DNA from: an uncultured Clostridia bacterium
Lineage (GTDB): Bacteria > Acidobacteriota > Aminicenantia > JBFLYD01 > JBBIMS01
NCBI GenBank assembly: GCA_964649495.1
Contig: CAZYPR010000003.1
Coordinates: 17,879 to 81,878 of the forward strand
Length of the DNA: 64,000 nucleotides
Reading direction: 5' to 3'
Below the pieces are notes generated by a model. The model was given only the letters and a program-made list of their open reading frames with translations, was not told where the DNA came from and ran no database searches. The position numbers were made by a program, and so were the translations under genes. How positions within the stretch are numbered: the stretch's first letter is position 1; every line of letters begins with the position of its first letter. Positions 5,031-59,415 of this stretch are shown one piece after another.

Positions 5031-6272
5031 TTATCTCAATCTTTTTGCTTCTACAACTCCTTTTTTCCCATCGTAAAAGGCGTAACCTATCTTGTTTCCA
5101 TTCCTATCGAAAAACTCATAATTTATAGCAACAATTTCTCCTTCTTTGTAAGTATACTCGACTTTAATATTTCCTTGAGCTGACAAAATAGTTTTTGACC
5201 ATGTGAGAGTTTTTTCAGTGCCACGCTGTTCAATCCTCCCTGTCCAATCACGATTTGCAGGATCAGTAATTCTTCCAGGATCAAAACCCATAGATTCAGC
5301 TTGTTCAGGAGTAGGTAGATTTCTACCGCAGAAATCAATACCTCTACTTCCCCTCCCTGATGCAGACTCTGAGGGATTTATAATTGTTCTTCCCTTTTCT
5401 GTTTTTGAACTCTTTTCCCTTTCATAACCCGATTTTGTGGATTGGTCAGGATAGTTTTGAGCTGGTTGTATCCCTCTGTCTAAGGACTTCCCCCCTCTCT
5501 TTTCCTGTATGCTGATTTTCTCTTCTTTCCTTTTTTTGATAGAAACTCCAAATTTTTCATTTAATTCGTCAGCCTTTTTGCATACTGGGCTGTCACAGGA
5601 GACAATTTCAGGATTAGGTGTGTAGATAGTCTTTTTTATCCATTCCTTTCTGTCTGATGGATATTCGGTGGATCTTACCGCTCCCTTTGCAAACTCTTGC
5701 CATGCCTGACGGTCTAAGTTATCATCATTACGACCAATTACCCAGCCCGTATGGATGTCTTCCGCCAATCTGTCAAGTTGCTCTTTTGTAGGATTCTCCG
5801 ATTTTTTCACCTCCTCCATATCTCTTCTTGTTCTTTGGTCGTTTATTTCTCTTGCATTATTCAGATGATGCTCAGCCGATTGTGTATCATTATTAAGAAA
5901 ATCATTCATGGCTGAATCCATTTCTTCTATAACTTTTTTATTCTCTTCAGTTCTATCAACCTCACCTTCCATTACTTGTCCTTGTTTCCCTATAGAAATG
6001 GATGGCTTAGTAGGTAAACCTGTAAATTCAACTTCTCCTTTAAGGCTGTATGTTTTCAATCCTCCCATTGTCTTTTCAACTCCCTGACAGGGGTCATTTC
6101 CAACTGCAGGTGCAGAGAAGCCAATTGAAAAAATTGCTCTTCCAACCTCATTTTGCGCTTCTTCCTTCTTAACCCCTATTTTTTTGAAAATGGGATGTTT
6201 GGTCTGGGATGATAAAGAAGATGTAAAGAGCAATGAACCAATTAAAAACAGTACTAAATTTCTTTTTTTCAT
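5031..6272 (-). CDS. Secreted hypothetical protein, charged and low-complexity
   Basis: It has the signal peptide MKKRNLVLFLIGSLLFTSSLSSQ and a long K/E/R-rich body, with no recognisable catalytic motif. A ggagg RBS lies upstream. Confidence 0.45.
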   Translation of the reverse strand: MKKRNLVLFLIGSLLFTSSLSSQTKHPIFKKIGVKKEEAQNEVGRAIFSIGFSAPAVGNDPCQGVEKTMGGLKTYSLKGEVEFTGLPTKPSISIGKQGQVMEGEVDRTEENKKVIEEMDSAMNDFLNNDTQSAEHHLNNAREINDQRTRRDMEEVKKSENPTKEQLDRLAEDIHTGWVIGRNDDNLDRQAWQEFAKGAVRSTEYPSDRKEWIKKTIYTPNPEIVSCDSPVCKKADELNEKFGVSIKKRKEEKISIQEKRGGKSLDRGIQPAQNYPDQSTKSGYEREKSSKTEKGRTIINPSESASGRGSRGIDFCGRNLPTPEQAESMGFDPGRITDPANRDWTGRIEQRGTEKTLTWSKTILSAQGNIKVEYTYKEGEIVAINYEFFDRNGNKIGYAFYDGKKGVVEAKRLR

Positions 6273-6308
6273 ATGTAAACCTCCATTATTTTCTTTAAAG
6301 TGTATTTT

Positions 6309-7160
6309 TTAAAAAACAAAGTTTAAATTAGCGGATGAAGTTGATACGCCCTTTGTTCTGAAAGCAAGATTCAAATGGACAGGACCAAAAATATTTATAT
6401 TCACTCCTCCAATAAGGTAGACATTTTCTTTCATTTTTGAATTAAGTTCTATATCATATTTTACATTACCAATATCCGCAGGGGTCCCTTCCATAAACCA
6501 GCTTGTTTTTGGCTTCATATCTATGTATCCGCCACCGAGATAGGGTGTTAATTTCCCGAATTTTTTACTTAAAATTATTCCTGCGATGATTTCATTCACT
6601 GCTGTATCCACTCTGTATTTTACCTCTCCTCCTCCATGCTGGATTCTGAATTGCTCCTCCTCAAATTCTTTGAACTCAATCCCATTTATATACATTTTTC
6701 CGTCAGGTTTATATGTTATATAATCAGCATTTATTTCCGCTTTAAAGCCAGCAATTTCAAAAACTTTAACCTTTGCTCCCACTCCCCATATAAAAGATAT
6801 ATTCCCTTTAAATTTTAATTCCTGTGGTGGTGTTCCAGGTTCACCTGGTGGGTTCTCAAGCGAAACATTCCAATCGAGACTTGTGAAGCCTACTTTACCG
6901 TAAATTGAGAAGAAATTCAAAGGAGAAATAGAACATCTAAGGAAGGCTCTACTTGATTTTGAAGGGATTCCCTCCTTTGATGTTTCGAGAGTGTGAAAGT
7001 CAACTTTTCCGGGAAGTGTGATAACTGCCTTACCACCATTGTTTATAAGATTTCTATCACTTACACTCTCAAACTCCAAACCAAAGCTCAAAAACTTCTC
7101 CTGAGCTACTAAAGAAAAAATAAATAACATACTAAAAAGTATCCTTAGTGTGGATTTCAT
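6309..7160 (-). CDS. Outer-membrane beta-barrel protein
   Basis: It has a signal peptide (MKSTLRILFSMLFIFSLVAQE) and alternating hydrophobic beta-strand patterning. The C-terminal ...NLNFVF ends in Phe, as is typical for OMPs. A strong RBS (aggaggtaaaaaatg) precedes it. Confidence 0.55.
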   Translation of the reverse strand: MKSTLRILFSMLFIFSLVAQEKFLSFGLEFESVSDRNLINNGGKAVITLPGKVDFHTLETSKEGIPSKSSRAFLRCSISPLNFFSIYGKVGFTSLDWNVSLENPPGEPGTPPQELKFKGNISFIWGVGAKVKVFEIAGFKAEINADYITYKPDGKMYINGIEFKEFEEEQFRIQHGGGEVKYRVDTAVNEIIAGIILSKKFGKLTPYLGGGYIDMKPKTSWFMEGTPADIGNVKYDIELNSKMKENVYLIGGVNINIFGPVHLNLAFRTKGVSTSSANLNFVF

Positions 7161-7236
7161 TTTTTACCTCCTCATAAATTCTAAAATTCAAAGATGAAAA
7201 AGTCAAAGAATTTTAAATTTGAATTTAAGGTTTTTG

Positions 7237-7265
7237 TTGACAGCAGGAAAGAATTGTTTTATATT
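7237..7265 (+). promoter_or_regulatory. Sigma70-type promoter (TTGACA-17-TATATT) upstream of thiC
   Basis: TTGACA sits at 7237-7242, followed by a 17-nt spacer and TATATT at 7260-7265. The thiC ATG at 7286 lies 20 nt downstream. Confidence 0.4.
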
Positions 7266-7285
7266 TTGAACTAAGAGTCAATTCT

Positions 7286-8599
7286 ATGGAGAAATCAATG
7301 AGCTTAATAGATGAGCTAAAAAAGGGAAATATTCCTCCTTCAGTCAAGATTGTTGCTGAGGAGGAAGGGATTTCGAAAGAAGAACTTGCTGAAAATATAA
7401 TAAAGGGTCATGCTGTAATTGTTGCCAATAAACTTCACAGAAACATTAAACCTGTTGGAGTAGGTAAAAAGCTCAGAACAAAGGTGAATACAAATCTTGG
7501 AACTTCCATGGATTTTCCCCATATTAAGTATGAAATTGAGAAGCTGAAGCTTGCAATAAAATATAAAACAGACACAGTAATGGATTTGAGCACAGGGGGT
7601 AACATCGACCTTAATAGAAAGGAAATAATAAAAAATTCAACAGTTCCTGTTGGCTCTGTTCCAATTTATCAGGCGGCTATTTATGGTCTCTCAAAGTGGG
7701 GGAATATGGTAAATCTTACGGTTGATGATATTTTTCATGTCATTGAGCTTCATGCAAAGGATGGAATTGATTTTATAACTGTTCATGCGGGTTTGACTCT
7801 TAAGGGTGTTGAAAGGCTGAAAAAGCAGGGAAGGCTTACGAGCATTGTTTCAAGGGGTGGAGCTTTTATGGTTGGTTGGATGATTCATAACGAAAAGGAG
7901 AATCCTCTTTACGAGCACTTTGATAGACTCTTGGAAATTGCAAAAAAATATGAGCTCACACTGAGTCTTGGAGATGGGCTAAGACCTGGTTCAATTGCTG
8001 ACTCAACTGACTGGGCTCAGATAGATGAGCTCCTTGTTCTCGGAGAGCTTGTAAAGAGGGCGAGGTCAGCAGGGGTTCAGGCTATTGTCGAAGGACCCGG
8101 TCATATTCCAATAAATGAGATTTCAATGAATATAAAACTTCAGAAGAAGATTTGCGATGATGCTCCCTTTTATGTTCTTGGTCCTCTTGTCACAGATATC
8201 GGTGCGGGATACGACCATATAACTGCAGCGATTGGCGGAGCTGTAGCTAGTGCTGAAGGAGCTGATTTCCTCTGCTATGTTACACCAACCGAGCATATTG
8301 GACTACCTGATTTAGAAGATGTGAAACAAGGTTTGATAGCCTTTAGAATAGCTGCCCACGCAGGAGATATTGCAAAGGGAATAAAGGGGGCAAAGGAGAT
8401 GGACAGAAAGATGTCAGAGGCGAGATATAAGCTTGATTGGGCTGAGCAGGAGAGATTGAGCCTTGATCCTGAAAAGTTCAGGGAAGTTAGAATGAAGAGA
8501 GGGAGTAAATCGAAGGCATGCTCCATGTGTTCTGATCTTTGCGCAATGAAAGTAATTTCAGAATTCCTTGAGGAAGGAAATGTCCAGTATCTCTTATGA
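7286..8599 (+). CDS. thiC: Phosphomethylpyrimidine synthase (HMP-P synthase), the short archaeal/thermophile-type ThiC
   Basis: It contains ...VEGPGHIPINEI...PFYVLGPLVTDIGAGYDHITAAIGGA...FLCYVTPTEHIGLP...CSMCSDLCAMK, with the C-terminal Cx2Cx4C radical-SAM cluster motif characteristic of ThiC. Confidence 0.9.
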   Translation: MEKSMSLIDELKKGNIPPSVKIVAEEEGISKEELAENIIKGHAVIVANKLHRNIKPVGVGKKLRTKVNTNLGTSMDFPHIKYEIEKLKLAIKYKTDTVMDLSTGGNIDLNRKEIIKNSTVPVGSVPIYQAAIYGLSKWGNMVNLTVDDIFHVIELHAKDGIDFITVHAGLTLKGVERLKKQGRLTSIVSRGGAFMVGWMIHNEKENPLYEHFDRLLEIAKKYELTLSLGDGLRPGSIADSTDWAQIDELLVLGELVKRARSAGVQAIVEGPGHIPINEISMNIKLQKKICDDAPFYVLGPLVTDIGAGYDHITAAIGGAVASAEGADFLCYVTPTEHIGLPDLEDVKQGLIAFRIAAHAGDIAKGIKGAKEMDRKMSEARYKLDWAEQERLSLDPEKFREVRMKRGSKSKACSMCSDLCAMKVISEFLEEGNVQYLL

Positions 8600-9431
8600 A
8601 GGAATTTTATTCGGAACTGGTGGAGTCCCTCTTAGCACAAAGGGAAGTTCCACTGAAGATGGGATAAGAAGAATAAGGGAGCTTGACCTTGATTGCATGG
8701 AGATAGAGTGGGTCAGGGGAGTCCATTTGAGGGAGGAAGGAGCTCGCTCAATAAAAAAAGTTGCGGAAGAGGAGAGAGTTGCCCTTTCAGTTCATGCTCC
8801 CTATTTTATTAATTTAAATTCTGAAGATAAAGAGAAGAGAATTGCCAGTATGGAAAGAATAATTGTATCCTGCAGAATGGGAGAACTTGCGGGAGCAAGG
8901 TCTGTTGTCTTTCATCCTGGATATTATGGGAATTCAAAGGATGCTTACTCTGTAATAAGAGATTCGATAAAGGAGATCTCCGATGAGCTTAAAAGGGAAA
9001 GGAAGAAAATTACTTTAAGACCTGAAACAACAGGTAAGCCAACCCAGTTTGGTAGTCTTGATGAGATTTTGAAAATTTGCGAAGAGGTCGAGGGGGTTCT
9101 TCCATGCGTTGATTTCGCCCATATTCATTCAAGAGAGAGCGGAAAATACAACAGTTATGAGGAATTTGCAAAAATTTTAAAGAGAATTGAAAGAGCTCTG
9201 GGTAAAGAATCCCTGAAAAATATGCACATACATATTTCAGGGATTGATTATTCTTCTAAGGGAGAGAAGAAACATCTTAATTTACAGGAATCGGATTTTA
9301 AATTTGATGAATGGATTCAGGTTTTGAAAGATTTTAGCGTTCAGGGATTGGTAATTATTGAAAGTCCTAACCTTGAAACAGACGCAATTTTACTTAAAAG
9401 GCTTTATCATGGCAAGGGAATTAAAAGTTAA
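8568..9431 (+). CDS. Xylose-isomerase-like TIM-barrel protein of AP endonuclease family 2 (endonuclease IV-like)
   Basis: It carries VHAPYFINLNS, VVFHPGYY, LRPETTGK, CVDFAHIHS and MHIHISG, a pattern of His/Glu/Asp metal ligands resembling Nfo. It overlaps the thiC 3' end by 32 nt. Confidence 0.5.
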   Translation: MRKEMSSISYEGILFGTGGVPLSTKGSSTEDGIRRIRELDLDCMEIEWVRGVHLREEGARSIKKVAEEERVALSVHAPYFINLNSEDKEKRIASMERIIVSCRMGELAGARSVVFHPGYYGNSKDAYSVIRDSIKEISDELKRERKKITLRPETTGKPTQFGSLDEILKICEEVEGVLPCVDFAHIHSRESGKYNSYEEFAKILKRIERALGKESLKNMHIHISGIDYSSKGEKKHLNLQESDFKFDEWIQVLKDFSVQGLVIIESPNLETDAILLKRLYHGKGIKS

Positions 9432-10290
9432 ATTCTTAGGAGTAAGGGGAAGTTATCCCGTTTCTTCCAATGGATTTTTAAAGTTTGGGGGAAACACAGC
9501 ATCAGTTCTTGTTGAGACCCCTCATGTATTTGTTATTTTCGATGCTGGGACTGGAATTGTTAATGTTCCTTCCATAATTAAAAATAGTCCTCTTCCTATA
9601 ATCCTTCTCTTTTCCCATCTCCATCTCGACCATATAATCGGATACCCATTTTTCACAAGTCAGATAAACCCATCAATAGATCTTTATGTCGCTGGTCCAA
9701 ATTTTCCTTCCGATTTCTTTAAATTCATGGTTGACACTTTTAAATCTCCCATCTATCCTGTTTCATGGGGGCAGATCAAATCTCCCAAAATGATTTTCGC
9801 CCTTGATGGAGGTGAATCCCTTATAATTTATAAGGGAAGAGTCAGTCTTGCAGAAAAAGGAGATTTTGAGCATTCTGATAGAAAAGTAATAATTTCATCA
9901 TTAAAATCTAATGCTCATCCAGAGGACGGGGTTCTCATCTATTCCCTTCGATTCAATGGAAAGAAAATTGTTTATGCCACTGATGTGGAATGGAAAGGAA
10001 AACTGGACAGGAAAACAAAGATTTTTATGAAGGATTGTGATGTATTAATTCACGATGCTCAGTATACTCCTGAGGAATACAATTCAAAAAGTAATTCTAC
10101 TAAAGGTTTCGGGCATAGCACCTATATAATGTCCTGTGAAGCAGCAAAGGAGGTTTCAGCAAAAAACTTAATCCTGTTTCATCATGACCCTGGACATAAT
10201 GATTCTATGATAGAGGAAATTGAGAAAAGAGCAAGGAGTATTTATGTTAATACAAGATCCGCTTATGAGGGAATGGAAATAAGGGTTTGA
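9409..10290 (+). CDS. MBL-fold metallo-hydrolase
   Basis: The HLHLDHIIG motif (HxHxDH) is followed by downstream D/H ligands. The internal ATG at 9409 is the likely start, since the ORF track start at 9358 would lie deep inside the previous gene. Confidence 0.65.
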   Translation: MARELKVKFLGVRGSYPVSSNGFLKFGGNTASVLVETPHVFVIFDAGTGIVNVPSIIKNSPLPIILLFSHLHLDHIIGYPFFTSQINPSIDLYVAGPNFPSDFFKFMVDTFKSPIYPVSWGQIKSPKMIFALDGGESLIIYKGRVSLAEKGDFEHSDRKVIISSLKSNAHPEDGVLIYSLRFNGKKIVYATDVEWKGKLDRKTKIFMKDCDVLIHDAQYTPEEYNSKSNSTKGFGHSTYIMSCEAAKEVSAKNLILFHHDPGHNDSMIEEIEKRARSIYVNTRSAYEGMEIRV

Positions 10291-11711
10291 AGATGGAATT
10301 CCCTTTTATAATTGGTGGTAAAAAGAGGAAATCTGAAGCATTTAAAGATATAAAGAGCCCATGGAATGGAGAAGTTTGCTCAAGAGTATATCTCTCCGAA
10401 AAGGAGGACATAGAGGAGGGGGTAAAACTTGCAGATAGATCATTTGAGGGAACGAGGAAACTTCCTTCCCATGAGAGAGCTTTGATACTTGAGAAAATAT
10501 CTTCCCAGCTCGAGAAAAGAAAGGAGGAGATTGCCAGATGGATAGTTCTTCAGGCTGGGAAACCAATAAGAGACTCAAGAGCAGAGGTTGATAGGGCAAT
10601 ATTTACATTTAAGATTGCGAGTGAGGAAGCAAAAAGAATTGGTGGAGAGATAATAGACCTTGATTGGAGAAAAGGACTTGATAAAAGGGTTGGTTTGATC
10701 AGAAGATTTCCAGTAGGAACTATTCTTGCAATTACACCCTTCAATTTCCCTTTGAATCTTGTAGCCCATAAGGTTGCTCCCGCTATAGCTTCTGGGAATC
10801 CAATAATTTTGAGACCAGCAACCCAAACCCCTTCACCTTCATTAATTCTTGGAGAAATTGTTGTAGAATCAGGTTATCCTGAGAATGCAATATCTGTTGT
10901 TCCCAGCTCTCACGAATCTATAGAGTATCTTTTCACTGATGATAGAATAAAAAAAGTTACCTTTACAGGAAGTGCAGAGGTAGGATGGGAGATAAAGAAG
11001 AAGGCTTGGAAGAAAAAGGTGACATTGGAGCTTGGCGGGAATGCGGGTGTGATTGTTGATAGAGATGCAGATTTAGATTGGGCAGTTGAAAGGATTACAT
11101 TTGGTTCCTTTTCATATGCAGGGCAGATATGCATATCTGTTCAGAGAGTATGGATACATGAGGAAATATGGGATAATTTTATAAACAAATTCTTAGAAAG
11201 AACAAGAAAACTGAAAGTTGGAGACCCGAGGGATGAAGGTACTGATATTGGTCCCTTGATTGATGATGAATCAGCAAAGAGAGTAAGAGATTGGCTTGAT
11301 GAAGCAAAGGAAGGAGGTGCTATATTTTTAGAAGGAGGGAGAATAGAAGGAAGATTAATGGAGCCAACTATAATAACCAACACAAAACCAGAAATGAAAA
11401 TTTTCTGTGCAGAAGCTTTTGCTCCCCTTGTAATTGTTGAGAAATTCAGGGATTTTGAATCTGCAGTAGAAGGGGTGAATAATTCAGTTTACGGGCTTCA
11501 GGCTGGAGTGTTTACAAAGGATATAAAGAAAATATTCAGTGCTTTTGATAATCTTAATGTTGGAGGAGTTGTGGTTAATGATGTTCCCACTTTCCGTGTC
11601 GATCATATGCCTTACGGAGGAGTTAAAGAATCAGGTTTTGGAAGAGAGGGAATAAGATGGGCTATGGAGGAAATGACAGAGGTAAAACTCCTCGTCCTTA
11701 ATTTAGCGTAA
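10287..11711 (+). CDS. NAD(P)+-dependent aldehyde dehydrogenase (non-phosphorylating GAPDH, GapN-like, or lactaldehyde dehydrogenase family)
   Basis: It has the ALDH catalytic region ELGGNAGVIVDRDADLDWAVE...FGSFSYAGQICISVQRVWIHEEI with the Cys nucleophile context. It is 474 aa. Confidence 0.8.
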   Translation: MKMEFPFIIGGKKRKSEAFKDIKSPWNGEVCSRVYLSEKEDIEEGVKLADRSFEGTRKLPSHERALILEKISSQLEKRKEEIARWIVLQAGKPIRDSRAEVDRAIFTFKIASEEAKRIGGEIIDLDWRKGLDKRVGLIRRFPVGTILAITPFNFPLNLVAHKVAPAIASGNPIILRPATQTPSPSLILGEIVVESGYPENAISVVPSSHESIEYLFTDDRIKKVTFTGSAEVGWEIKKKAWKKKVTLELGGNAGVIVDRDADLDWAVERITFGSFSYAGQICISVQRVWIHEEIWDNFINKFLERTRKLKVGDPRDEGTDIGPLIDDESAKRVRDWLDEAKEGGAIFLEGGRIEGRLMEPTIITNTKPEMKIFCAEAFAPLVIVEKFRDFESAVEGVNNSVYGLQAGVFTKDIKKIFSAFDNLNVGGVVVNDVPTFRVDHMPYGGVKESGFGREGIRWAMEEMTEVKLLVLNLA

Positions 11712-11774
11712 AAGAATATGAAAACAATTAAGCTACGAGCTTTTTATTTTAACTTTTCAAAGGAGGATTTATAA

Positions 11775-12629
11775 ATGAGAGAGATTAGTTTGAAGTATGT
11801 AAAGGAAGAGATCAAAAGGAGCGTCCAGGAAGCAAATTTTATTCTCAGGGAGGATGTCCTTAAAATCATTGAGGAGGCTTCAAAAAAAGAAGAGTCAGAG
11901 GTAGGAAAGGAAGTATTCGACCAGATTTTGAAAAATGCCCAGATTGCCAGAGAGGAACTTCTCGCATTATGCCAGGACACAGGAGTTGCAGTATTTTTTG
12001 TTGAACTTGGTGAAGAAGTTAGATTTAAATATGACGGATTCAAAGGTCTTAGAGACGCCATTGAACAGGGAATGATTGAGGGATACAAAGAAGGTTATCT
12101 TAGAAACTCTATTGTTGAGGATCCCCTCAGAAGGAAGAACACAGGTAACAATGCTCCTGCATTTATCCACTGGGAACTTGTTCCTGGAGATAAGCTGAAA
12201 ATTTATTTCCTTGCAAAGGGTGGAGGAGCTGAGAACATGAGTGCAATTAGAATGTTCCCTCCTGCGGCTGGTGCAGAAGGTATTGAAAATTTTGTTGTTG
12301 AAACAGTGGAGAAAGCAAGTTCAAATCCATGTCCTCCAATTATAGTTGGAGTTGGTATTGGAGGGAATTTTGAAATTGCTCCTCTACTTGCTAAAAAAGC
12401 TCTTCTTAGAAATCCTGTTGGTTCCCATCATCCTGATCCATTTTATGCTGATATGGAAGAAAGACTCTTGAAAAGAATTAATAATCTCGGGATAGGTCCT
12501 CAGGGGCTCGGGGGTAGAATAACTGCTCTTGCTGTTCATATTGAGGTTCATCCATGCCATATTGCTTCAATGCCTACTGCTGTAAATATTGAATGCCACT
12601 CCCACAGAATAAGAGAAATGGAGTTTTAG
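11775..12629 (+). CDS. Fe-S hydro-lyase alpha subunit of the tartrate/fumarate subfamily (class I fumarate hydratase alpha)
   Basis: It contains the [18 protein letters not shown] signature (CQDTG), is 284 aa, and has a strong aggagga RBS. Confidence 0.7.
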
Positions 12630-12638
12630 GAGGTAAAA

Positions 12639-13190
12639 TTGATAGAGATAAGGTTTCACGGAAGAGGAGGTCAAGGAGCAGTAATAGCCTCTGAGATTCT
12701 TGCTTCAGCACTTTTTTCTGAAGGAAAATATGTTCAGACATTCCCCCAGTTTGGAGTTGAAAGGAGGGGTGCTCCTGTTTCCGCTTTTTTGAGAATAGAT
12801 GATAAACCGATAAATCTAAGATGCAGAGTTTACACTCCTGACCATATAATTGTTCTTGATCCAATTCTTATAGAATCAGTTAATGTTACAGATGGTTTAA
12901 AGAAAGGAGGTTGGATTGTTCTGAACACATCAAAAAGTCCGAAGGATTTCCCTAATTTTTCCGATTTTAAAGTTGCAGTAGTGGATGCCTCAGGCATTGC
13001 AATTAAATACAGACTTGGTCCAAAAACTGCCCCAATAGTTAACACTGCTATACTTGGTGCTTTTGTGAGAGCAACAGGTATTGTTAGTCTTGAATCTATT
13101 TTAAAAGCTATGGAAGAATATGTTCCTATTAAACTTGAGGAAAATAAAAAAGCTGCTAAGGATGCTTATGAGGAGGTAAAATGGGAATAA
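12639..13190 (+). CDS. porG: 2-oxoacid (pyruvate/ketoisovalerate):ferredoxin oxidoreductase gamma subunit
   Basis: It starts [50 protein letters not shown], the canonical PorG N-terminus. It has a TTG start with an aggagg RBS. Confidence 0.8.
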
Positions 13191-14830
13191 TTAAATTTGA
13201 AAAGCTATCCGATTTCCCTTATATGCCTGCTTCCCTCTCAGACACCCTTTATAACAGGACAGGTTCATGGAGAACTTTCAGACCCATTCACAGGAATAAA
13301 ATCCCTCCCTGCAACCACGCATGCCCAACCAATGAGAATATTCAGAAATATATTTATTTAATTCTTAAAGGAAATTATGATGAGGCATACAGAGTTATAA
13401 AAGAGGACAATCCAATCCCTTCCATAACAGGGAGGGTCTGCTACCATCCTTGCGAGACAGCTTGCAATAGAGATAAATTTGACAGAGCTATTTCAATTCA
13501 TCACATCGAAAGATTTCTTGGAGATTACGGACTCAATATAAAGGATAGATGGAATATTGTTGATAGAAAAGAAAAAATAGGGATAATTGGTTCAGGACCA
13601 GCAGGGCTTGCCTGTGCATATCATCTAAGAAGAAAAGGTTATAAAGTAAAAATATTTGAAGCAGAACCCCAGTTCGGAGGACTTCTAAGATATGGTATTC
13701 CTTCATATAGATTGCCAAAGGATATACTTGATGCAGAGATAAGAAAACTTGAGGAAATGGGGATTGAATTTGTTGCTAATCATAAAGTAAAAAGTCCCTA
13801 TGACCTTCTTGGAGAATTTGATGCTGTATTTGTAGGTATTGGTGCAACCCTTTCCACAAGTTTGGGAGTAGAGGGAGAAGATATAGAAGGAGTTATAAAA
13901 GGTATTGAATTTTTGAAAAGAGTGAATAAAGGAGAAAGGGTTGAGTTGGGTAAGAGAGTGGCAGTTATTGGAGGCGGTAACACAGCAATTGACTCCGCTC
14001 GAACTGCATTAAGGTTAGGAGCAGAAGTGAAGATTTTGTATAGGAGATCAAGGGCTGAGATGCCCGCTATACCATCTGAAGTTGAAGATGCAGAAGCAGA
14101 GGGTATTGAAATTGAATTCCTTGTAGCTCCTTCAAAAATTATCAGTGATAATGGAAGGTTATCTGGAATTGAATGCATAAGAATGGAGTTGGGAGAGCCT
14201 GATGAATCAGGAAGGCGAAAACCTGTTCCAGTTAAAGGCTCAGAATTTTTAATCCCATTGGACAATGTAATTTCAGCTATTGGAGAAAAGGTTGATCTTG
14301 GATTTTTTAATGGGCTTGAAACCACAAAATGGGGAGTTAAGGGAGATTATTTCGGAAGAACATCCTCAGAAAGAATATTTGTTGGTGGAGACTGTCTGAC
14401 AGGACCGGCAACAGTTGTAGAAGCTCTCGGTGCTGGGAAAAAATCTGCTATGGCAATAGACCATTTCTTAAGAAGTGAATCTTTTCCTGCAGTTGAAGAG
14501 GTAAAGCCTTTAGAGTTTGAGAAAATTAATCTTAATTATTTTAAGAAAAAGGAAAGAATTGAGCCTAAAAGACTTGAGCCATACGAGAGAATAAGCAACT
14601 TCAAAGAGGTATGGAAAAGATTTGAAGAACCTGCTTTAATTTCAGAATGCGAGAGATGCTTCTCCTGCGGGGTATGCAATGGATGCGATAATTGCTGGGT
14701 ATTCTGCCCCGATGTTTCGATAATCAGAAAGGGGGAAGATTATTCAGTGAATTATGATTATTGTAAAGGATGCGGAGTATGTGCAAAGGAGTGTCCGAGA
14801 AGTGTAATTGATATGGAGGAAGAAAGATGA
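13181..14830 (+). CDS. Fusion of a GltD-like FAD/NAD(P)H-binding oxidoreductase with a C-terminal PorD-type 2x[4Fe-4S] ferredoxin (delta subunit)
   Basis: It has an N-terminal Cys cluster (CNHACP...CYHPCETAC) and the dinucleotide fold IGIIGSGPAGLACAYHLRRKGYKV plus VAVIGGGNTAIDSA, as in the glutamate synthase small subunit/NfnB/SudA. The C-terminus CERCFSCGVCNGCDNCWVFCPD...CKGCGVCAKECP is the PorD delta signature. It sits between porG and porA. Confidence 0.7.
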   Translation: MGIIKFEKLSDFPYMPASLSDTLYNRTGSWRTFRPIHRNKIPPCNHACPTNENIQKYIYLILKGNYDEAYRVIKEDNPIPSITGRVCYHPCETACNRDKFDRAISIHHIERFLGDYGLNIKDRWNIVDRKEKIGIIGSGPAGLACAYHLRRKGYKVKIFEAEPQFGGLLRYGIPSYRLPKDILDAEIRKLEEMGIEFVANHKVKSPYDLLGEFDAVFVGIGATLSTSLGVEGEDIEGVIKGIEFLKRVNKGERVELGKRVAVIGGGNTAIDSARTALRLGAEVKILYRRSRAEMPAIPSEVEDAEAEGIEIEFLVAPSKIISDNGRLSGIECIRMELGEPDESGRRKPVPVKGSEFLIPLDNVISAIGEKVDLGFFNGLETTKWGVKGDYFGRTSSERIFVGGDCLTGPATVVEALGAGKKSAMAIDHFLRSESFPAVEEVKPLEFEKINLNYFKKKERIEPKRLEPYERISNFKEVWKRFEEPALISECERCFSCGVCNGCDNCWVFCPDVSIIRKGEDYSVNYDYCKGCGVCAKECPRSVIDMEEER

Positions 14831-15981
14831 AAAAAGTTATTACAGGAAATCATGCGGTATCATATGGTGTAAAGGTTTCGAGGGTTGAAGTAATCGCAGC
14901 ATATCCAATAACTCCCCAGACTCAAGTTGTAGAACTTCTCTCTGAGTTTTGTGCGTCTGGTGAACTGAATGCCAAATTTATAAAAGTAGAATCAGAACAT
15001 TCCGCAATGGCTGCATGTATAGGAGCATCAATTGCGGGAGCAAGAGCTTTCACTGCCACATCAGCTCAGGGGCTTGCTCTCATGCACGAACTCCTCCACT
15101 GGGCAGCGGGAGGAAGATTACCCATTGTAATGGCTGATATAAATCGTGCAATGGCGCCAGGGTGGTCTGTATGGACAGACCAGAATGATACTCTTTCCCA
15201 GAGGGATACTGGATGGATGCAGATATACTGTGAATCAAATCAGGAGGTTTTCGATTCTGTAATCCAAGGTTATAAGATTGCAGAGAAAGTTTCAATACCT
15301 TTAATGCTTGTTCTTGATGCATTTGTTCTATCCCATACCTCTGAGCCTGTTGATATCCCAGAGCAATCAAAGGTAGATGCTTATTTGCCACCCTATTCTC
15401 CAGAAATAAAGATTGATATAAATAATCCGAGGGCTTTTGGAGGTCTACTCTCTCCCGACCACTATTTTGAGTTGAGATATTTACTCCAGAAGGATATGGA
15501 AAGGGCAGTTAAGGTTGCTAAGGAAGTTGATGAGGAATTCTATGAAATTTTTGGAAGAAAATATGGTGTTGTTGAGCCTTACAAATGTGATGATGCAAAA
15601 ACAATAATTGTTGTTTCCTCAACTTTAACAGGAACTGCAAGGACTGTAATTGATGAGCTAAGGAAAAGAGGAAAGAAGGTGGGACTACTTAAAATAAGAT
15701 TCTTCAGACCTTTCCCCTTTGATGATGTAAAATCTATTCTTTTAAGCGCAAAGAAGGTTGCAGTAATTGATAGAAACATATCTTATGGAGCGGGAGGAAT
15801 ATTCTTCCAAGAAATAAAATCAGCCCTTTACAATGAAAAGAATAGACCACCTATTTTTGGATACATAACAGGGCTTGGAGGAAGGGATGTTACTCCTGAA
15901 ATTATAAGTGAAATAATAGAATACACTGAAAAAAATGAAATGCCTGAGGAGAATATCCTTTGGAGAGGAGTAATGCAATGA
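14827..15981 (+). CDS. porA: 2-oxoacid:ferredoxin oxidoreductase alpha subunit
   Basis: It starts MKKVITGNHAVSYGVKVSRVEVIAAYPITPQTQVVELLSEF, the canonical PorA N-terminus, and is translationally coupled to its neighbours. Confidence 0.85.
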   Translation: MKKVITGNHAVSYGVKVSRVEVIAAYPITPQTQVVELLSEFCASGELNAKFIKVESEHSAMAACIGASIAGARAFTATSAQGLALMHELLHWAAGGRLPIVMADINRAMAPGWSVWTDQNDTLSQRDTGWMQIYCESNQEVFDSVIQGYKIAEKVSIPLMLVLDAFVLSHTSEPVDIPEQSKVDAYLPPYSPEIKIDINNPRAFGGLLSPDHYFELRYLLQKDMERAVKVAKEVDEEFYEIFGRKYGVVEPYKCDDAKTIIVVSSTLTGTARTVIDELRKRGKKVGLLKIRFFRPFPFDDVKSILLSAKKVAVIDRNISYGAGGIFFQEIKSALYNEKNRPPIFGYITGLGGRDVTPEIISEIIEYTEKNEMPEENILWRGVMQ

Positions 15982-16856
15982 AAAACTTTGTTTTACCTGA
16001 AGAAGAGTATATGAGTTCAGGGCATCTTGCATGCCCAGGTTGCGGTGGAGCTCTTGCCATGAGATTTGCTCTTAAAGTTCTTGGAAGGAAGACAGTAATT
16101 TCTCTTCCCGCATGCTGCTGGTCTGTTATAGATGGTCCTTTTCCCTATTCCTCTTTAAGAATTCCTCTCTTCCACTGTGCCTTTGAAACCGCCGCATCCA
16201 CTGCTTCTGGAATAAGAGCTGCTCTTGATATTAAAGGGGTGGAAGATGTAAATGTTGTTGCATGGGCTGGAGATGGAGGAACTTTTGACATAGGGCTTCA
16301 GGCTCTTTCGGGAGCTGCTGAAAGGAATGAGAATATAATTTACATTTGTTATGACAATGAAGCTTATATGAATACTGGAATTCAGAGATCATCAGCAACT
16401 CCAAAGGGTGCATGGACAACAACAACTCCTGTTGAACATCCCAAGAGTGAGCCAAAAAAGAATATGGTTGAGATAATGGCAGCTCACAGAATCCCTTACA
16501 CAGCAACCCTTTCTATAGCATATCCTGATGATTTTGTTAGAAAGCTTGAAAAGGCAAAGAATATAAAAGGGACAAGATTCCTCCACATATTCTCTCCATG
16601 CCCTCCGGGATGGAAAATGGCACCAGAGCTGACAATTGAAATTGCAAGAATTGCGGTAAGGACAGGACTTTTCCCTCTTTATGAAGTTGAAGGTGGAATC
16701 AAATACACAATAAATGTTGAACCTGACTGGATTCCAATAATTGAATATTTTAGACTCCAGGGAAGATTTTCCCATTTAACAGAAGATGACCTGAAGGAAA
16801 TTGAAAATAATGTTAAAAGGGAATGGGAAATACTGAAAGGGAAATTAAGAAGTTAA
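15978..16856 (+). CDS. porB: 2-oxoacid:ferredoxin oxidoreductase beta subunit (TPP-binding)
   Basis: It contains GHLACPGCGGALAMRFALKVLG and the TPP motif GDGGTFDIGLQALSGAAERNENIIYICYDNEAYMNTG. The likely start is the ATG at 15978, overlapping the porA stop as ATGA. The ORF track begins at 15960. Confidence 0.85.
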   Translation: MKNFVLPEEEYMSSGHLACPGCGGALAMRFALKVLGRKTVISLPACCWSVIDGPFPYSSLRIPLFHCAFETAASTASGIRAALDIKGVEDVNVVAWAGDGGTFDIGLQALSGAAERNENIIYICYDNEAYMNTGIQRSSATPKGAWTTTTPVEHPKSEPKKNMVEIMAAHRIPYTATLSIAYPDDFVRKLEKAKNIKGTRFLHIFSPCPPGWKMAPELTIEIARIAVRTGLFPLYEVEGGIKYTINVEPDWIPIIEYFRLQGRFSHLTEDDLKEIENNVKREWEILKGKLRS

Positions 16857-16980
16857 AAGTAAAGGCATGGAAGAAACGAAAAATGAAAAGATAAAAAAGG
16901 AATCAAGATTAATTCCTTATTATTCAAAACTTACTTGCTCTTTTACTTTTTAATTTTAAATTTCTTCAGGAGGTTTTGAG

Positions 16981-17454
16981 ATGAAAAAAATAATTATTTC
17001 AATTCTTTTTCTACTCCTTCTATTTTCACTTGTCTCTGCACAGGAAAAAGCTTACAATTTCCTTCTTCAGGATATTTCAGGAAAAACTTACAGACTTTCA
17101 GATTATAAAGGCAAGGTTGTAATAGTAAATTTTTTCGCAACCTGGTGCAGATTCTGCAGAATGGAAATACCCCATCTTGTATCCCTTGCGGGAGAATACA
17201 AGGACAAGGTTCAGATTTTTTCAATCTCAGTGGATGAAAATCCGCATGATGTTCTTCCCAAATTTATAAGGGATTTCAATATAAATTATCCGGTTTTAAT
17301 TGCCAATGAGGATGTTATCTCCGCATACGGAGGTCTAACCGAAGGAATACCTTACACTGTTTTCATTGATAAAAACGGGATCATAAGGAATACCTATCTT
17401 GGAGCAAGGGATAAGAAAGTTTTTGAGGAAGAGATATCTAAATTGTTGAAGTAG
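16981..17454 (+). CDS. Periplasmic thiol-disulfide oxidoreductase, TlpA/ResA-like thioredoxin
   Basis: It has a signal peptide, then NFFATWCRFCRMEIPHL with the CxxC active site, in the TlpA family fold. It is 157 aa. Confidence 0.75.
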   Translation: MKKIIISILFLLLLFSLVSAQEKAYNFLLQDISGKTYRLSDYKGKVVIVNFFATWCRFCRMEIPHLVSLAGEYKDKVQIFSISVDENPHDVLPKFIRDFNINYPVLIANEDVISAYGGLTEGIPYTVFIDKNGIIRNTYLGARDKKVFEEEISKLLK

Positions 17455-17508
17455 GTCTCTCATTTTTTAGAAATTGATTGTTTTTGCTTTTGATTATATA
17501 ATTTCTTT

Positions 17509-17895
17509 GTGAAAAAAAGCATAAAAAACAAATTTAAAAAAATAAGTATATCAGTTGTTTATCTATTTGGTTCTCACGCAACCGGGTTGGAACATGGCAA
17601 AAGTGACATTGACATAGGAGTTGTTTTTGAAAAGGACCATAGTAGAGATCATCTCAAAATATACACTCAACTCTATGAGCTATTCTCAGAAATTTTTCCT
17701 GATAAGGAAATAGACATAGTTTTTCTCGAGGAAGCACCTCTTTCACTTCAGTTTGAAGCTATAAAATATGGGAAAGTTTTATATGAAAAAAATGTCAAAA
17801 TAAGACTTGATTATGAAGAGAAAACAATGCTGAAATATGCTGATTTTTTGCCCTTAGAAGAGGAAATGAACAGGGTAATTATCGAAAGAATATGA
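17509..17895 (+). CDS. Minimal nucleotidyltransferase (MNT/MntA-like antitoxin of a type VII HepT-MNT toxin-antitoxin system)
   Basis: It contains LFGSHATGLEHGKSDIDIGVVF, the GSx9-13DxD nucleotidyltransferase motif. It has a GTG start and is translationally coupled to the downstream HepT (4-nt ATGA overlap). Confidence 0.7.
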   Translation: MKKSIKNKFKKISISVVYLFGSHATGLEHGKSDIDIGVVFEKDHSRDHLKIYTQLYELFSEIFPDKEIDIVFLEEAPLSLQFEAIKYGKVLYEKNVKIRLDYEEKTMLKYADFLPLEEEMNRVIIERI

Positions 17896-18350
17896 AAAGT
17901 TTGCCAGTAAATAAAAATACTATAATTAAGAGACTTGATGAGATCCAGCGTTGTGTGGAAAAGCTGAAAAAATTTGAAAAGATGTCCTTTGATGAGTTTA
18001 ATAGTGGAGAAAATTTTGCGGTATCTGAACATTATCTGAGAAGAGCCCTCGAAGCAGTCTTCGAAATTGGTGCTCATATTTTAGCAAGACTTCCTGGAGG
18101 GATAACATCCAGCTATAAAGAAATCGCAAAAAAACTGGGCGAATATAAAATTATTCCATCTCAATTTGCAAGGGATAGCCTTATTAAAATGGCTGGTTAT
18201 AGGAATAGGCTTGTTCATTTTTATTTTGAGGTATCAATAGAAGAGCTTTATGAGATAATAAGAAAAGATCTTAAAGATTTCGATGTATTTACTGAATTAA
18301 TAAAAAAATTTTTGCTTGAACCCGAGAAGTTTGGATTAAAAGTAGAGTAG
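17892..18350 (+). CDS. HepT-like toxin (DUF86, HEPN domain) of a type VII toxin-antitoxin pair
   Basis: It has the HEPN Rx4HxY motif RNRLVHFY near the C-terminus, is 152 aa, and follows MNT directly. Confidence 0.7.
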   Translation: MKSLPVNKNTIIKRLDEIQRCVEKLKKFEKMSFDEFNSGENFAVSEHYLRRALEAVFEIGAHILARLPGGITSSYKEIAKKLGEYKIIPSQFARDSLIKMAGYRNRLVHFYFEVSIEELYEIIRKDLKDFDVFTELIKKFLLEPEKFGLKVE

Positions 18351-25706: not shown

Positions 25707-26147
25707 TTATCTATTTGTCAATTCCTCTCTCAAGTAATTTTTTACCCTTTCCAAAAAACTTTTATACAAAGGTTCTGTTTCCTGAACGAATCTCTTTATA
25801 GAAGCCCATCTTATATCAAGATATTCGTGAGCAATAATATTTCTAAGAGACACCCATCGAGATATTTTCTCCATCTCTTCTTTATCGAATCCCTTTACAA
25901 GAGATAAAAATGAAATTATTTCTCTATAGGTTTCTGGAAGCTTTATATCTTCAGCGGTAAGTATTAGTTTAGATATATCAATGGAAGAATTCACTATATT
26001 TTCTATCCATCTTTCAACATCTCTTCTTTTACTTCTATTAATGTTGTATTCCTCCCAGCTGAGATCTCTAAAAAAAGAATAATCTTCTATCTCCTTTTCA
26101 ATAAAGTTTACATGTTTGATAATTCTTTCTCTCAGTTCTTCTTTCAT
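25707..26147 (-). CDS. HepT-like HEPN toxin (DUF86), second type VII toxin-antitoxin pair
   Basis: It has the Rx4HxY motif RNIIAHEY. It is 146 aa and overlaps the upstream MNT gene by 4 nt. Confidence 0.65.
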   Translation of the reverse strand: MKEELRERIIKHVNFIEKEIEDYSFFRDLSWEEYNINRSKRRDVERWIENIVNSSIDISKLILTAEDIKLPETYREIISFLSLVKGFDKEEMEKISRWVSLRNIIAHEYLDIRWASIKRFVQETEPLYKSFLERVKNYLREELTNR

Positions 26148-26560
26148 TTCTTTCCTCTTTCAAGAAAATTTTTAAAGAGCATTTCTCTGAAATCTATTGC
26201 TTCCGAGGTGATTACTTCCATAAATTTAATGTAAAGCCCCCTGTCATTTATCGCAAGTGGTGTACCTCTGATTGCACTCGCAGAAATACTCGCAGATGCT
26301 CTATTCATAACAATAAGTTCTACCTCCTTTTTTAATATTTTCTCAATATCAGACCATATTTTATCCTCAGCTTCGTAAAATATATCCTTTTCATACTCTA
26401 TCGGATGTCTTTCTTCAGGATAAAAGTATACTGCAATATCAACATCTGATAGATTATGGGTAGTCCCTTTAGCTTGTGAGCCAAACAAAAAGGCAAAGGC
26501 AATGTCCTTACGATTTCTAAAATACTCTCTCAACAATTCTAAATTTTTCTCTTCTATCAT
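26144..26560 (-). CDS. Minimal nucleotidyltransferase (MNT antitoxin)
   Basis: It contains FLFGSQAKGTTHNLSDVDIAVYF, the GSx10DxD motif, and is 138 aa. Confidence 0.7.
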   Translation of the reverse strand: MIEEKNLELLREYFRNRKDIAFAFLFGSQAKGTTHNLSDVDIAVYFYPEERHPIEYEKDIFYEAEDKIWSDIEKILKKEVELIVMNRASASISASAIRGTPLAINDRGLYIKFMEVITSEAIDFREMLFKNFLERGKK

Positions 26561-27347: not shown

Positions 27348-28071
27348 GAAAAGATTTTTCTATCTTTTAAAAATTGAATTTATTTTTTTTATAAATCTTC
27401 TTTTTCTTTCAGGATGCAGTGAGAGGGTTTTTGACAATCCCTTTGACCCTTTTGTTTCAAAGGGAGAGTTTTTCATTGTAAATTATATAAGTCTTCCATC
27501 CTCTGACATAGGGGATATAACATGGGATGGCTCAACTTTGCTCTGCATAAGTAAAAGTGGGACAATATACAGCATAAACAGAGTGAACGGCTCTACTGTT
27601 AGAACCATTCCCTCACCACTCCCATCACCCACAGGTCTTGTTTACGATGGGACAGGATTATGGATTTCCAGTCCTGAGCAGCCTGAGATTTTAAAAATTA
27701 ATATTTTGAGTGGAGAGATAATAAAAAGGACAGGGGTTCAGAGACTTCAAATATCATCCCTTGCATGGGATGGTGAGAATCTTTTAGGATATGACCGTAT
27801 CACAAAAATAATTTACAAAATTAATAAGGAAACTGGGGAGATAATCTCATCAATAAAAATCCCCGGCTTTTCCGCTGGAGGGATTCTTTTTTTCGATGGT
27901 AATATATGGGTTTCAGATCCTCTTTCAGCCTTAATTTACAAACTGAATCCTGAAGGGAAAATACTCTCAACCTACTCATCTCCAGGGCAAAAACCTCAGG
28001 GGCTTACCTATGATGGAGCTTACCTTTGGAATTCCGATGCAAGCGGAAAAGCTTTTCAGCTAAGGTTTTAA
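27304..28071 (+). CDS. Beta-propeller lipoprotein, glutamine-cyclotransferase-like
   Basis: It has a lipobox (LFLSGCSE) and repeated [YW]DG..[LI]W.S blades (ITWDGSTLL, VYDGTGLWISS, LAWDGENLL, LFFDGNIWVSD, LTYDGAYLWNSD), as in the bacterial/plant glutaminyl cyclase propeller. Confidence 0.45.
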   Translation: MEENPLRSHSKGSFRKRFFYLLKIEFIFFINLLFLSGCSERVFDNPFDPFVSKGEFFIVNYISLPSSDIGDITWDGSTLLCISKSGTIYSINRVNGSTVRTIPSPLPSPTGLVYDGTGLWISSPEQPEILKINILSGEIIKRTGVQRLQISSLAWDGENLLGYDRITKIIYKINKETGEIISSIKIPGFSAGGILFFDGNIWVSDPLSALIYKLNPEGKILSTYSSPGQKPQGLTYDGAYLWNSDASGKAFQLRF

Positions 28072-45861: not shown

Positions 45862-45870
45862 GAGGTAAAA

Positions 45871-47019: not shown

Positions 47020-47411
47020 TGTCAGTCCCAAAATACTGGAGAGAAATCCCTCAAAGGTATAGATTGGAGGCGGGGAAGTGCAAAAATTGTGGCTATATTG
47101 CCTTCCCTCCAAGACAGATCTGTCCTGAATGTAAAAAGAATGATTTTGAGAATATAAGACTTTCAGATACTGGTAAAATAATCTCCTACACAATAATAAG
47201 AGTTCCTCCCAAAAATTTCTCCTTCCAATCTCCTTATCCAGTTGCAATTATAGAGCTTGATGGTGGAGGGAGAATCACTGCTCAGATAACTGATGCAAGC
47301 CCTGAAGAAATTGAAATTGGTGCAAAAGTTAGGATTGTCTTGAGGAAAATTCAAGAAGAAGGGAAAGATGGAATCATATGCTATGGGTATAAAGCTACCC
47401 TTGAGAAATAG
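47019..47411 (+). CDS. DUF35 OB-fold/zinc-ribbon scaffold protein of the thiolase-HMGCS complex
   Basis: It has the [20 protein letters not shown] rubredoxin-like ribbon followed by an OB fold. It is 130 aa and translationally coupled to the thiolase (ATAATG overlap). Confidence 0.8.
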
Positions 47412-47413
47412 GA

Positions 47414-49021: not shown

Positions 49022-49027
49022 AATTAA

Positions 49028-56127: not shown

Positions 56128-56281
56128 TAAGAATGACTAATATAATTTTTTCTGGAGGACTAATAAATGAAATATTTTCGGAATTATTCTATTATATCTT
56201 TACACTTAAAAGCCCTCTTTAGAAGAAATCCTTTAAGAAAAATTCTATAAAAATTAAAAATCATTTTTGAGGTGGTGTATT

Positions 56282-59358: not shown

Positions 59359-59415
59359 AAGCAATTCAATTTTTGAGAATTCTTTTAAATTTTCCATGAA
59401 AGGAGGTTTTATAAA

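Follow-up and report, generated by a model that had tools for sequence, protein, structure and literature searches.

The stretch analyzed here, subsequently designated the window, comprises 64,000 nucleotides of contig CAZYPR010000003.1 (positions 17,879 to 81,878, forward strand; assembly GCA_964649495.1), deposited as an uncultured Clostridia bacterium and placed in the Aminicenantia by GTDB; all coordinates are positions in the window. At 12639-16856 (+) it carries four co-directional, tightly packed open reading frames (ORFs), i.e. porG, a gene for a 549-residue protein, porA and porB, which form an operon of the 2-oxoacid:ferredoxin oxidoreductase (OFOR) family. Judged by its sequence, the 549-residue protein is a circularly permuted GltD/NfnB module inserted between the arm and the ferredoxin core of PorD, the OFOR delta subunit. 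We consider it probable that the encoded enzyme belongs to the POR/VOR clade and works as a non-bifurcating 2-oxoacid:NADP+ oxidoreductase, in which the 549-residue protein replaces delta and exchange of electrons with ferredoxin would still be possible. Within its class, which is large, already catalogued and apparently uncharacterised, this operon is nothing unusual.

The two ends of the 549-residue protein, encoded at 13181..14830 (+), derive from PorD. Its first 40 residues match positions 15-48 of the VorD model NF007202 (E 1.1e-5) and positions 13-31 of PorD_Arch, and residues 21-38 (13241..13294, +; DTLYNRTGSWRTFRPIHR) align with residues 12-30 of 9bt4_G, the solved PorD of the Methanosarcina acetivorans pyruvate:ferredoxin oxidoreductase (PFOR). 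Residues T27, G28, W30, R31 and P35 of this N-terminal arm are invariant in an alignment of the protein with 22 homologues of 49-86% identity, which are named at their source as Aminicenantes, WOR-3, Latescibacteria, Planctomycetota and Acetothermia/Bipolaricaulia. At the opposite end, residues 499-549 (14675..14827, +) make up the PorD 2x[4Fe-4S] ferredoxin core, and the eight Cys of its CxxCxxCxxxCP pair (499/502/505/509 and 528/531/534/538) are all invariant. The core scored 62.4-68.2 bits against TIGR02179 PorD_KorD (cutoff 60.05), the lower value being that of the C-terminal 102 residues alone, and it matched 9bt4_G by phmmer with an E-value of 1.7e-13, which confirmed the canonical PorD C-terminus that had been proposed in an earlier, sequence-only reading of this DNA.

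Arm and core are parted by an insert of ~460 residues, the flavoprotein module. It begins with a helical Fe-S domain (residues 41-117; 13301..13531, +; C44, C48, C87, C91, E92 and C95), continues with the Rossmann domains for FAD and NADP(H) (residues 130-432; 13568..14476, +) and ends with a segment (residues 448-498; 14522..14674, +) carrying the motif NF.EV...E..RCFSCG with C493 and C496. Pfam detected the first two parts as Fer4_20 (residues 41-117, E 9e-20) and Pyr_redox_2 (133-419, E 1.7e-32), in addition to a C-terminal 4Fe-4S dicluster. The flavoprotein body begins only with what is canonically the third Cys of the first cluster motif, C44 being equivalent to Cys47 of Thermotoga maritima NfnB (4ylf_B), and the Fer4_20 match accordingly starts at profile position 29. 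A profile of residues 448-498 matched the extreme N-termini of NfnB (4ylf_B 2-42, E 8.7e-9), PfNfnI-L (5jca_L 6-47, E 7.8e-8), Xfn (5vj7_A 6-47) and GltD (6s6s_G 9-53, E 2.6e-5). Since the segment behind the body thus corresponds to canonical N-termini, the module is permuted relative to GltD and NfnB. The same profile also found sites behind the flavoprotein in the BfuA subunits of the NfnABC and Stn complexes (9n5u_A 552-594, E 5.7e-12; 9bov_A 525-567; 8oh5_C 525-566). Profile and family-model tests were employed for arm and relocated segment, as single-sequence evidence was marginal for both (E 0.014 and 0.16). The cut of the permutation falls into the four-residue loop between the second Cys (C496) and the third Cys (C44) of the first cluster motif; the PorD arm joins ahead of C44, and the PorD core starts two residues past C496 (C496-G-V-C499), a spacing which makes the module cluster and the PorD cluster neighbours in sequence. 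The canonical order of the two N-terminal cluster motifs (CxxCx4Cx3CP ... Cx3CxnCx3C) is therefore not found, and in topology the protein agrees with the BfuA modules. Hence, of the fusion anatomy proposed earlier the covalent join of delta to a flavoprotein stood, while the N-terminal GltD-like unit did not: the first ~38 residues are PorD arm, and the module that follows is permuted and inserted in PorD.

The cofactor sites of the module are intact. The FAD-binding motif GSGPAG (residues 137-142) and E160 are invariant, as is GGD at 402-404, and the NADP(H) site is represented by the likewise invariant GGGNTAID (264-271), followed by Y287-R288-R289. The latter motif closes the second strand of the NADP(H) fold and is also present in the NADPH-binding NfnB and NfnABC. 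The FAD and NADP(H) motifs aligned residue by residue to those of NfnB (4ylf_B, 5jca_L) and NfnABC (9bov_A), and R177, which is equivalent to Arg201 of PfNfnI-B, is invariant. So are the ligands of the module clusters, i.e. Cys 44, 48, 87, 91, 95, 493 and 496 together with Glu92. The earlier assignment of a GltD/NfnB-like FAD/NAD(P)H/[4Fe-4S] flavoprotein thus held up in the alignment; of its N-terminal Fe-S Cys cluster the ligands are conserved, but two of them, C493 and C496, lie behind the flavoprotein body.

The whole protein also belongs to a curated family. It scored 587.4 bits against NCBIfam model NF009410 (PRK12771, ‘NAD(P)-binding protein’; cutoff 516), and the match runs end to end, residues 25-548 covering profile positions 31-565 of 566; this architecture is therefore one that had already been curated. 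Family matches reached E-values down to 1e-176 and are far beyond chance. An AlphaFold2 model of the cofactor-free monomer, computed from the alignment, had a pLDDT of 88 and a pTM of 0.86, with only residues 1-24 disordered, as might be expected of a docking arm. When the model was compared with solved structures by Foldseek, it matched BfuA of NfnABC/Stn with a TMq of 0.80-0.81 over ~580-600 columns, the C-terminal ferredoxin part included, whereas NfnB, GltD and DPD reached only ~0.66. Sequence scores showed the same ranking, with 367-422 bits for the BfuA modules, 294-306 bits for NfnB and ~210 bits for GltD. The closest solved homologues are accordingly the NADPH-entry modules of Caldicellulosiruptor saccharolyticus and Thermococcus sibiricus NfnABC and of Sporomusa ovata StnABC, which have the same permuted order. 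In these complexes NADPH reduces the FAD and electrons then run along a [4Fe-4S] chain, the BfuA module serving as a plain NADPH entry while bifurcation takes place elsewhere in the complex (PMC11829005).

Occurrence of the fusion was assessed by a pattern scan in which each GTDB species was represented by a single genome and from which 80 loci were kept, and the window's PorG, PorA and PorB were placed on these by tblastn. Relatives of the 549-residue protein are encoded in at least 599 species genomes. OFOR genes adjoin the fusion in 72 of the 73 sampled loci whose match spans the PorD core, and five of the seven matches without this core have no OFOR neighbour. The genomic linkage of fusion and OFOR is thus near-obligatory. 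Two main gene orders are represented, spread over many phyla. The gene order of the window, porG-fusion-porA-porB, was observed in 30 loci plus two truncated ones, and the order porG-porA-porB-fusion in 28 loci plus six truncated ones, which belong to Proteobacteria, Solirubrobacterales, Streptomyces and Magnetovibrio; the operon of Magnetovibrio blakemorei (locus L065) contains no separate porD. Of the remaining arrangements, porG-fusion only was seen at one locus and fusion-porA(-porB) at five. At loci L026, L050, L063, L075 and L060 (Actinomycetota, Gaiellaceae and Methylococcales) the fusion precedes porA-porB, no upstream PorG was detected by tblastn, and identity of alpha and beta to the subunits of the window amounts to 27-37% only; possibly these loci represent a distinct OFOR subtype with the same fused subunit.

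The junction of module and PorD core is similarly widespread. Residues 448-549 were compared by phmmer with 1.84 billion representatives of 50%-identity clusters, which yielded 804 matches with E-values of at most 1e-10, and among the matches listed nearly all are C-terminal in proteins of ~545-610 residues or lie in fragments. Three longer matches (P0171, P0211 and P0254; 744-776 residues) carry a PorG domain fused ahead of the same protein, which independently argues for the flavoprotein belonging physically to the OFOR complex. In a further protein, P0269 (900 residues), an N-terminal extension of ~370 residues takes the place of the PorG domain. The best named homologues of the 549-residue protein are 68-78% identical, and the database names of its relatives are confined to ‘NAD(P)-binding protein’, ‘FAD-dependent oxidoreductase’ and ‘OFOR delta subunit’. 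These data also bear on the suspicion, raised in the sequence-only reading as what would overturn it, that two separate ORFs have been joined by mis-assembly; here these would be a gltD-like gene and porD, united by mis-assembly or a frameshift. The same full-length architecture recurs at 40-88% identity in independent assemblies and matches a curated model end to end, relatives and junction occur in the numbers of species genomes and clusters given above, and PorD sequence flanks the insert on both sides, which a simple join could not yield. Conservation excludes such a join, and we regard an artefact as exceedingly improbable.

The other three genes of the operon encode regular OFOR subunits. 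porG (12639..13190, +) starts with TTG, preceded by AGGAGGT, and encodes the gamma subunit of 183 residues, which matches Pfam PF01558 (POR; E 2.2e-41) and TIGR02175 (227 bits, cutoff 81) and passes the PorC equivalog model NF006321 with 226.2 bits (cutoff 225). The alpha subunit of 384 residues is encoded by porA (14827..15981, +), which follows the fused gene in an ATGA overlap; it matches POR_N (PF01855; E 1.1e-73, 248 bits) and PFOR_II (PF17147; E 3.9e-31, 108 bits), stays below the equivalog cutoffs of both PorA_Arch (510.5 versus 550) and VorA (471 versus 646), and has its closest solved relative in the alpha subunit of M. acetivorans PFOR (9bt4_B, 360 bits). porB (15960..16856, +) encodes the beta subunit of 298 residues, which is predicted to bind thiamine pyrophosphate (TPP) and a [4Fe-4S] cluster. 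Its ORF begins with TTG at 15960, although the true start is probably the ATG at 15978, which forms an ATGA overlap behind GGAGAGGAG. The product matches TPP_enzyme_C (PF02775; E 1.5e-21) and the VOR-named subfamily model NF008818 (420.9 bits, cutoff 405), contains the TPP motif GDGG at residue 104 as well as Cys 25/28/52/53/214 for one [4Fe-4S] cluster, and is closest to 9bt4_C among solved proteins (248 bits). Successive genes overlap by 10, 4 and 22 nt, the last value becoming 4 nt if porB starts at ATG 15978. According to the ORF list and the Pfam/NCBIfam matches of its ORFs, the operon lacks a separate porD. Gene calls and coordinates of a porGDAB-type operon, as given in the sequence-only reading, were right. 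Scanning of positions 7000-17600 for promoters and terminators gave counts no better than those of shuffled sequences, and thus the limits of the operon are drawn from the gene overlaps only. An Rfam scan of the window revealed one tRNA only and no riboswitch near the operon.

How would such an enzyme work? Given a join that is real, conserved and linked to OFOR genes, the natural reading is that NADP(H) is wired into the electron path of the OFOR, in agreement with what had been proposed from the sequence. Presumably the four gene products assemble into a four-subunit complex. At TPP on alpha/beta, the 2-oxoacid would be decarboxylated in the presence of CoA, and electrons would exit singly through the [4Fe-4S] cluster of beta, the two clusters of the PorD core and the two module clusters to FAD. 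The flavin would gather both electrons and reduce NADP+ by hydride transfer, so that the net reaction reads 2-oxoacid + CoA + NADP+ -> acyl-CoA + CO2 + NADPH, with no flavin-based bifurcation; the PorD-core clusters may still swap electrons with free ferredoxin. Continuity of this predicted path is supported by the adjacency of C496 and C499 and by the fold match over the whole chain to a solved NADPH-FAD-[4Fe-4S] wire. The physiological direction is likely to be mainly oxidative. The standard potentials of the couples are approximately -500 mV for acetyl-CoA + CO2/pyruvate and -320 mV for NADP+/NADPH, from which it follows that oxidation is exergonic by ~35 kJ/mol and NADPH-driven carboxylation correspondingly uphill.

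Absence of bifurcation is suggested by the comparison with characterized NfnB-like proteins. NfnB-like proteins that stand alone, lacking NfnA as a partner, work as plain ferredoxin:NADP+ oxidoreductases (Fnor), from which bifurcating NfnB proteins differ by a longer N-terminus, Arg333 (numbering of PfNfnI-B) and an upstream nfnA gene (PMC12221290). In the window protein the position of Arg333 is taken by Ile297, and by Ile, Val or Thr in its homologues. The gene upstream of the fusion is porG, and the operon contains no gene for an NfnA-like or PyrK-like [2Fe-2S]/FAD protein. Bifurcation of the NfnSL type was rejected as a candidate on these two grounds, and flavin-based bifurcation in general is unlikely because Arg333 is lost, NfnA is missing and the BfuA module is not a bifurcation site.

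Several points weigh against the proposed 2-oxoacid:NADP+ oxidoreductase and are to be set against this evidence. The substrate models conflict, since they assign gamma to a POR equivalog and beta to a VOR-named model, whereas alpha falls short of both; the models place the operon in the POR/VOR clade and would be compatible with both pyruvate and branched-chain 2-oxoacids. The first Cys of the second module-cluster motif is replaced by Thr83, at which position some homologues have Cys, and one of the module clusters must therefore use Glu92 or another ligand; Cys3Glu ligation of a cluster has precedent in NfnB. A preference for NADPH over NADH is suggested by a single motif. Transfer of electrons of approximately -500 mV onto NADP+ wastes energy, so that a coupled or regulated role is conceivable. 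Finally, our literature search found no biochemical data on any member of the fused class.

Among the alternatives, an enzyme that differs from the one proposed merely in the partition of flux deserves most weight, although it still appears rather unlikely. It would be a mainly ferredoxin-reducing OFOR, whose tethered module diverts a variable share of electrons to NADPH, or in which NADPH keeps the clusters reduced or protects them under O2. The PorD core is retained with every ligand and many hosts are aerobes or microaerophiles, as this idea would have it, but at the level of sequence nothing distinguishes it from the 2-oxoacid:NADP+ oxidoreductase, and we know of no precedent for a protective role of such a module. 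In Nitrospira marina a third POR cluster, with an unassigned ‘4Fe-4S protein’ in the place of delta, is strongly induced at low O2 (PMC8115632); a Nitrospira locus of our sample (L030), which may or may not correspond to it, has the fusion beside porB. Obligatory coupling of NAD(P)H to both ferredoxin and 2-oxoacid/acyl-CoA, in which FAD would split or merge electron pairs, is improbable to a considerably higher degree. This confurcation with ferredoxin, which the sequence-only reading had offered as a possibility, could draw on the homology of the module to NfnB, whose FAD is the bifurcating flavin, and the PorD-core clusters could provide a second exit to ferredoxin. It is disfavoured by Ile, Val or Thr in the place of Arg333, by the operon lacking an NfnA-like partner and by the homologous module of NfnABC/Stn not being the site of bifurcation; moreover, no high-potential third partner is obvious.

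The sequence-only reading had favoured a 2-oxoacid (pyruvate) synthase, which is driven reductively by NAD(P)H through the fused flavoprotein and fixes CO2. The wire is reversible in principle, OFORs of this clade can work as synthases, and by a rough estimate the couples could come close to each other if pyruvate is very low, CO2 is high and the NADPH/NADP+ ratio is high. A gene for the alpha subunit of fumarate hydratase lies 9 nt upstream of porG, in the window as well as in an 81%-identical relative. However, by the standard potentials the reaction is uphill by ~180 mV for NADPH, none of the 80 wider loci shows the fumarase linkage, and neither ATP-citrate lyase nor 2-oxoglutarate synthase, markers of the reductive tricarboxylic acid cycle, was detected among the window ORFs scanned. 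Common carriers among the matches listed are Streptomyces, Solirubrobacterales, Lysobacterales and Alphaproteobacteria, of which the first three are typically heterotrophs, and the family is not restricted to autotrophs that use this cycle. Frequency in such lineages and the missing markers argue against a dedicated role in CO2 fixation, and we judge the synthase unlikely. Hardly more credible is a broader version, according to which the class couples 2-oxoacid/acyl-CoA + CO2 to NADPH in an energy-conserving manner or in reverse, either by a confurcation that is not of NfnSL type, with the ferredoxin exit of the PorD core set against the flavin, or by ferredoxin-independent, NADPH-driven synthesis at high CO2. 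If it applied, hundreds of bacterial lineages would possess an unrecognised pyridine-nucleotide route to CO2-fixing or CO2-releasing C-C chemistry.

The 2-oxoacid:NADP+ oxidoreductase proposed here was compared with known systems. With PorABDG/VorABDG enzymes such as M. acetivorans PFOR (9bt4) it shares alpha, beta and gamma, the TPP motif and the cluster Cys of beta, and both arm and 2x[4Fe-4S] core of PorD are kept, but they are parted by the flavoprotein insert, and the predicted acceptor is NADP+ rather than ferredoxin alone. With BfuA of NfnABC/StnABC (9bov_A, 9n5u_A, 8oh5_C) it has in common the permuted GltD-like module followed by ferredoxin-type clusters. BfuA contains in addition an N-terminal [2Fe-2S] domain and a formate-dehydrogenase-like domain, both of which are missing from the window protein; genes for BfuB (NuoF-like) and BfuC (NuoE-like) are absent from the operon, and instead pieces of PorD bracket the module and OFOR genes adjoin. 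NfnB, the large subunit of NfnSL, and GltD resemble the module in fold, FAD and NADPH motifs, the Arg201 equivalent and two [4Fe-4S] clusters; they differ in that here the N-terminal segment has moved behind the flavoprotein body, the module resides within another protein and a GltB or NfnA partner is lacking. Absence of Arg333 and of an NfnA partner is shared with ferredoxin:NADP+ oxidoreductases of the Cac_0764 type (PMC12221290). By description, not by sequence, the arrangement can also be likened to variants of HdrA in ANME-1, where an NfnB-like domain interrupts an inserted ferredoxin domain (PMC9012536); likewise an NfnB-like module sits within a ferredoxin-type domain, the host being a heterodisulfide reductase. 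In Propionibacterium, PFOR is flanked by NfnA/NfnB-like genes (PMC7650540).

The idea of an OFOR linked to pyridine nucleotides is not new. NADP-linked OFORs comprise the pyruvate:NADP+ oxidoreductase (PNO) of Euglena and Cryptosporidium, a fusion of PFOR with a cytochrome P450 reductase (CPR), and the 2-oxoglutarate:NADP+ oxidoreductase of Azoarcus. Phenylglyoxylate:NAD+ oxidoreductase PadEFGHI of Azoarcus is described as an NAD-linked OFOR in the account of Hirsch et al. 1998 given by PMC5109826. All of these follow the same principle, i.e. OFOR electrons are passed internally to a pyridine-nucleotide flavoprotein, but PNO employs a C-terminal domain of cytochrome-P450-reductase type, and Pad a separate subunit together with a beta subunit extended at its N-terminus, from both of which the window fusion differs. 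Membership of the Pad type was rejected, as scores remained far below the cutoffs for PadE (179.6 versus 300), PadG (302 versus 700), PadI (253.5 versus 700) and Pad delta (42.9 versus 150). A PFOR-CPR enzyme of PNO type was likewise dismissed, since the operon encodes a multi-subunit enzyme with neither a flavodoxin nor an FAD_binding_1 domain and its flavoprotein is of Pyr_redox_2 type. The five-subunit pyruvate and 2-oxoglutarate oxidoreductases (POR/OGOR) of Aquificae do not provide a precedent either, their extra subunit resembling the epsilon subunit found in carbon monoxide dehydrogenase (CODH)/acetyl-CoA synthase (ACS) and not a flavoprotein (PMC10052474). A full-text literature search found no description or assay of a PorD-GltD/NfnB fusion, which is not proof of absence.

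What this analysis adds is the precise anatomy, with a permuted BfuA-type module in PorD, and the near-obligatory linkage of this protein to OFOR genes. The finding is not conceptually surprising, yet it affects the metabolic annotation of many lineages. Metabolic reconstructions normally treat OFORs as obligate ferredoxin/flavodoxin enzymes; if NADP+ is reduced directly, oxidation of pyruvate or branched-chain 2-oxoacids would be assigned the wrong redox carrier in at least 599 species-level genomes, including those of Aminicenantes, WOR-3, Gemmatimonadota, Thermodesulfobacteriota and many Proteobacteria and Actinomycetota. In that case bacteria would possess, by independent evolution, an equivalent of the pyruvate:NADP+ oxidoreductase of eukaryotes. 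The anatomy also illustrates how Fe-S flavoproteins are spliced, the module having been opened inside its own cluster motif and placed at the start of the cluster motif of PorD. As the class has cultured carriers, for example Magnetovibrio blakemorei MV-1 and a Streptomyces strain, the hypothesis lends itself to direct testing.

Some further genes of the window are recorded here. The gene upstream of porG (11775-12629, +) encodes the alpha subunit of a class-I (Fe-S) fumarate hydratase, and no gene for the beta subunit (Fumerase_C) was detected among the scanned window ORFs of at least 100 residues. A relative with 81% identity (GCA_900174565.1, locus L081) keeps the whole order thiC-...-fumA-porG-fusion-porA-porB-ahpC. 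Nevertheless, the fumarase alpha and aldehyde dehydrogenase genes lying upstream were rejected as functional partners of the operon, the arrangement being kept in this one relative and absent from the 80 wider loci. The co-directional run that ends in the TPP-dependent OFOR is headed by thiC (7286-8599, +), and thiE is located at 61121-61807 (-); no TPP riboswitch was found in the window at the Rfam gathering score.

Large ORFs of 283-628 residues without a Pfam match at E <= 1e-5 are present at 5031-7160 (-), 28026-29912 (+) and 38342-39457 (+). Two pairs of nucleotidyltransferase and HEPN (HepT, DUF86-like) genes, at 17509-18350 (+), where they were judged from sequence only, and at 25707-26560 (-), where Pfam Polbeta and a HepT-like domain were matched, look like MNT-HEPN toxin-antitoxin modules. 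In the region 44821-49813 (+), genes for an archaeal-type HMG-CoA synthase (TIGR00748, 536 bits; here in a bacterium), a thiolase and a DUF35/ChsH2 OB-fold protein stand together, and behind them lie those for a carboxyltransferase (535 residues) and an enoyl-CoA hydratase. These genes could serve entry into the mevalonate pathway or leucine catabolism, and the latter would, speculatively, fit a branched-chain 2-oxoacid role of the OFOR. Finally, the region 56267-60993 (+) encodes a NuoE/HoxE-like [2Fe-2S] protein (187 residues), a NuoF-like FMN/[4Fe-4S] protein (625 residues) that has an additional dicluster at its C-terminus, a protein resembling HoxU and the N-terminus of NuoG (238 residues) and a 525-residue protein with a weak match to PF01645 (glutamate-synthase FMN; 54 bits) and none in NCBIfam. 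It looks like a Bfu/diaphorase-type module beside a GltB-like flavoprotein, and its NuoE/NuoF-like genes (56267-58676) form a separate cluster 40 kb from the OFOR operon.

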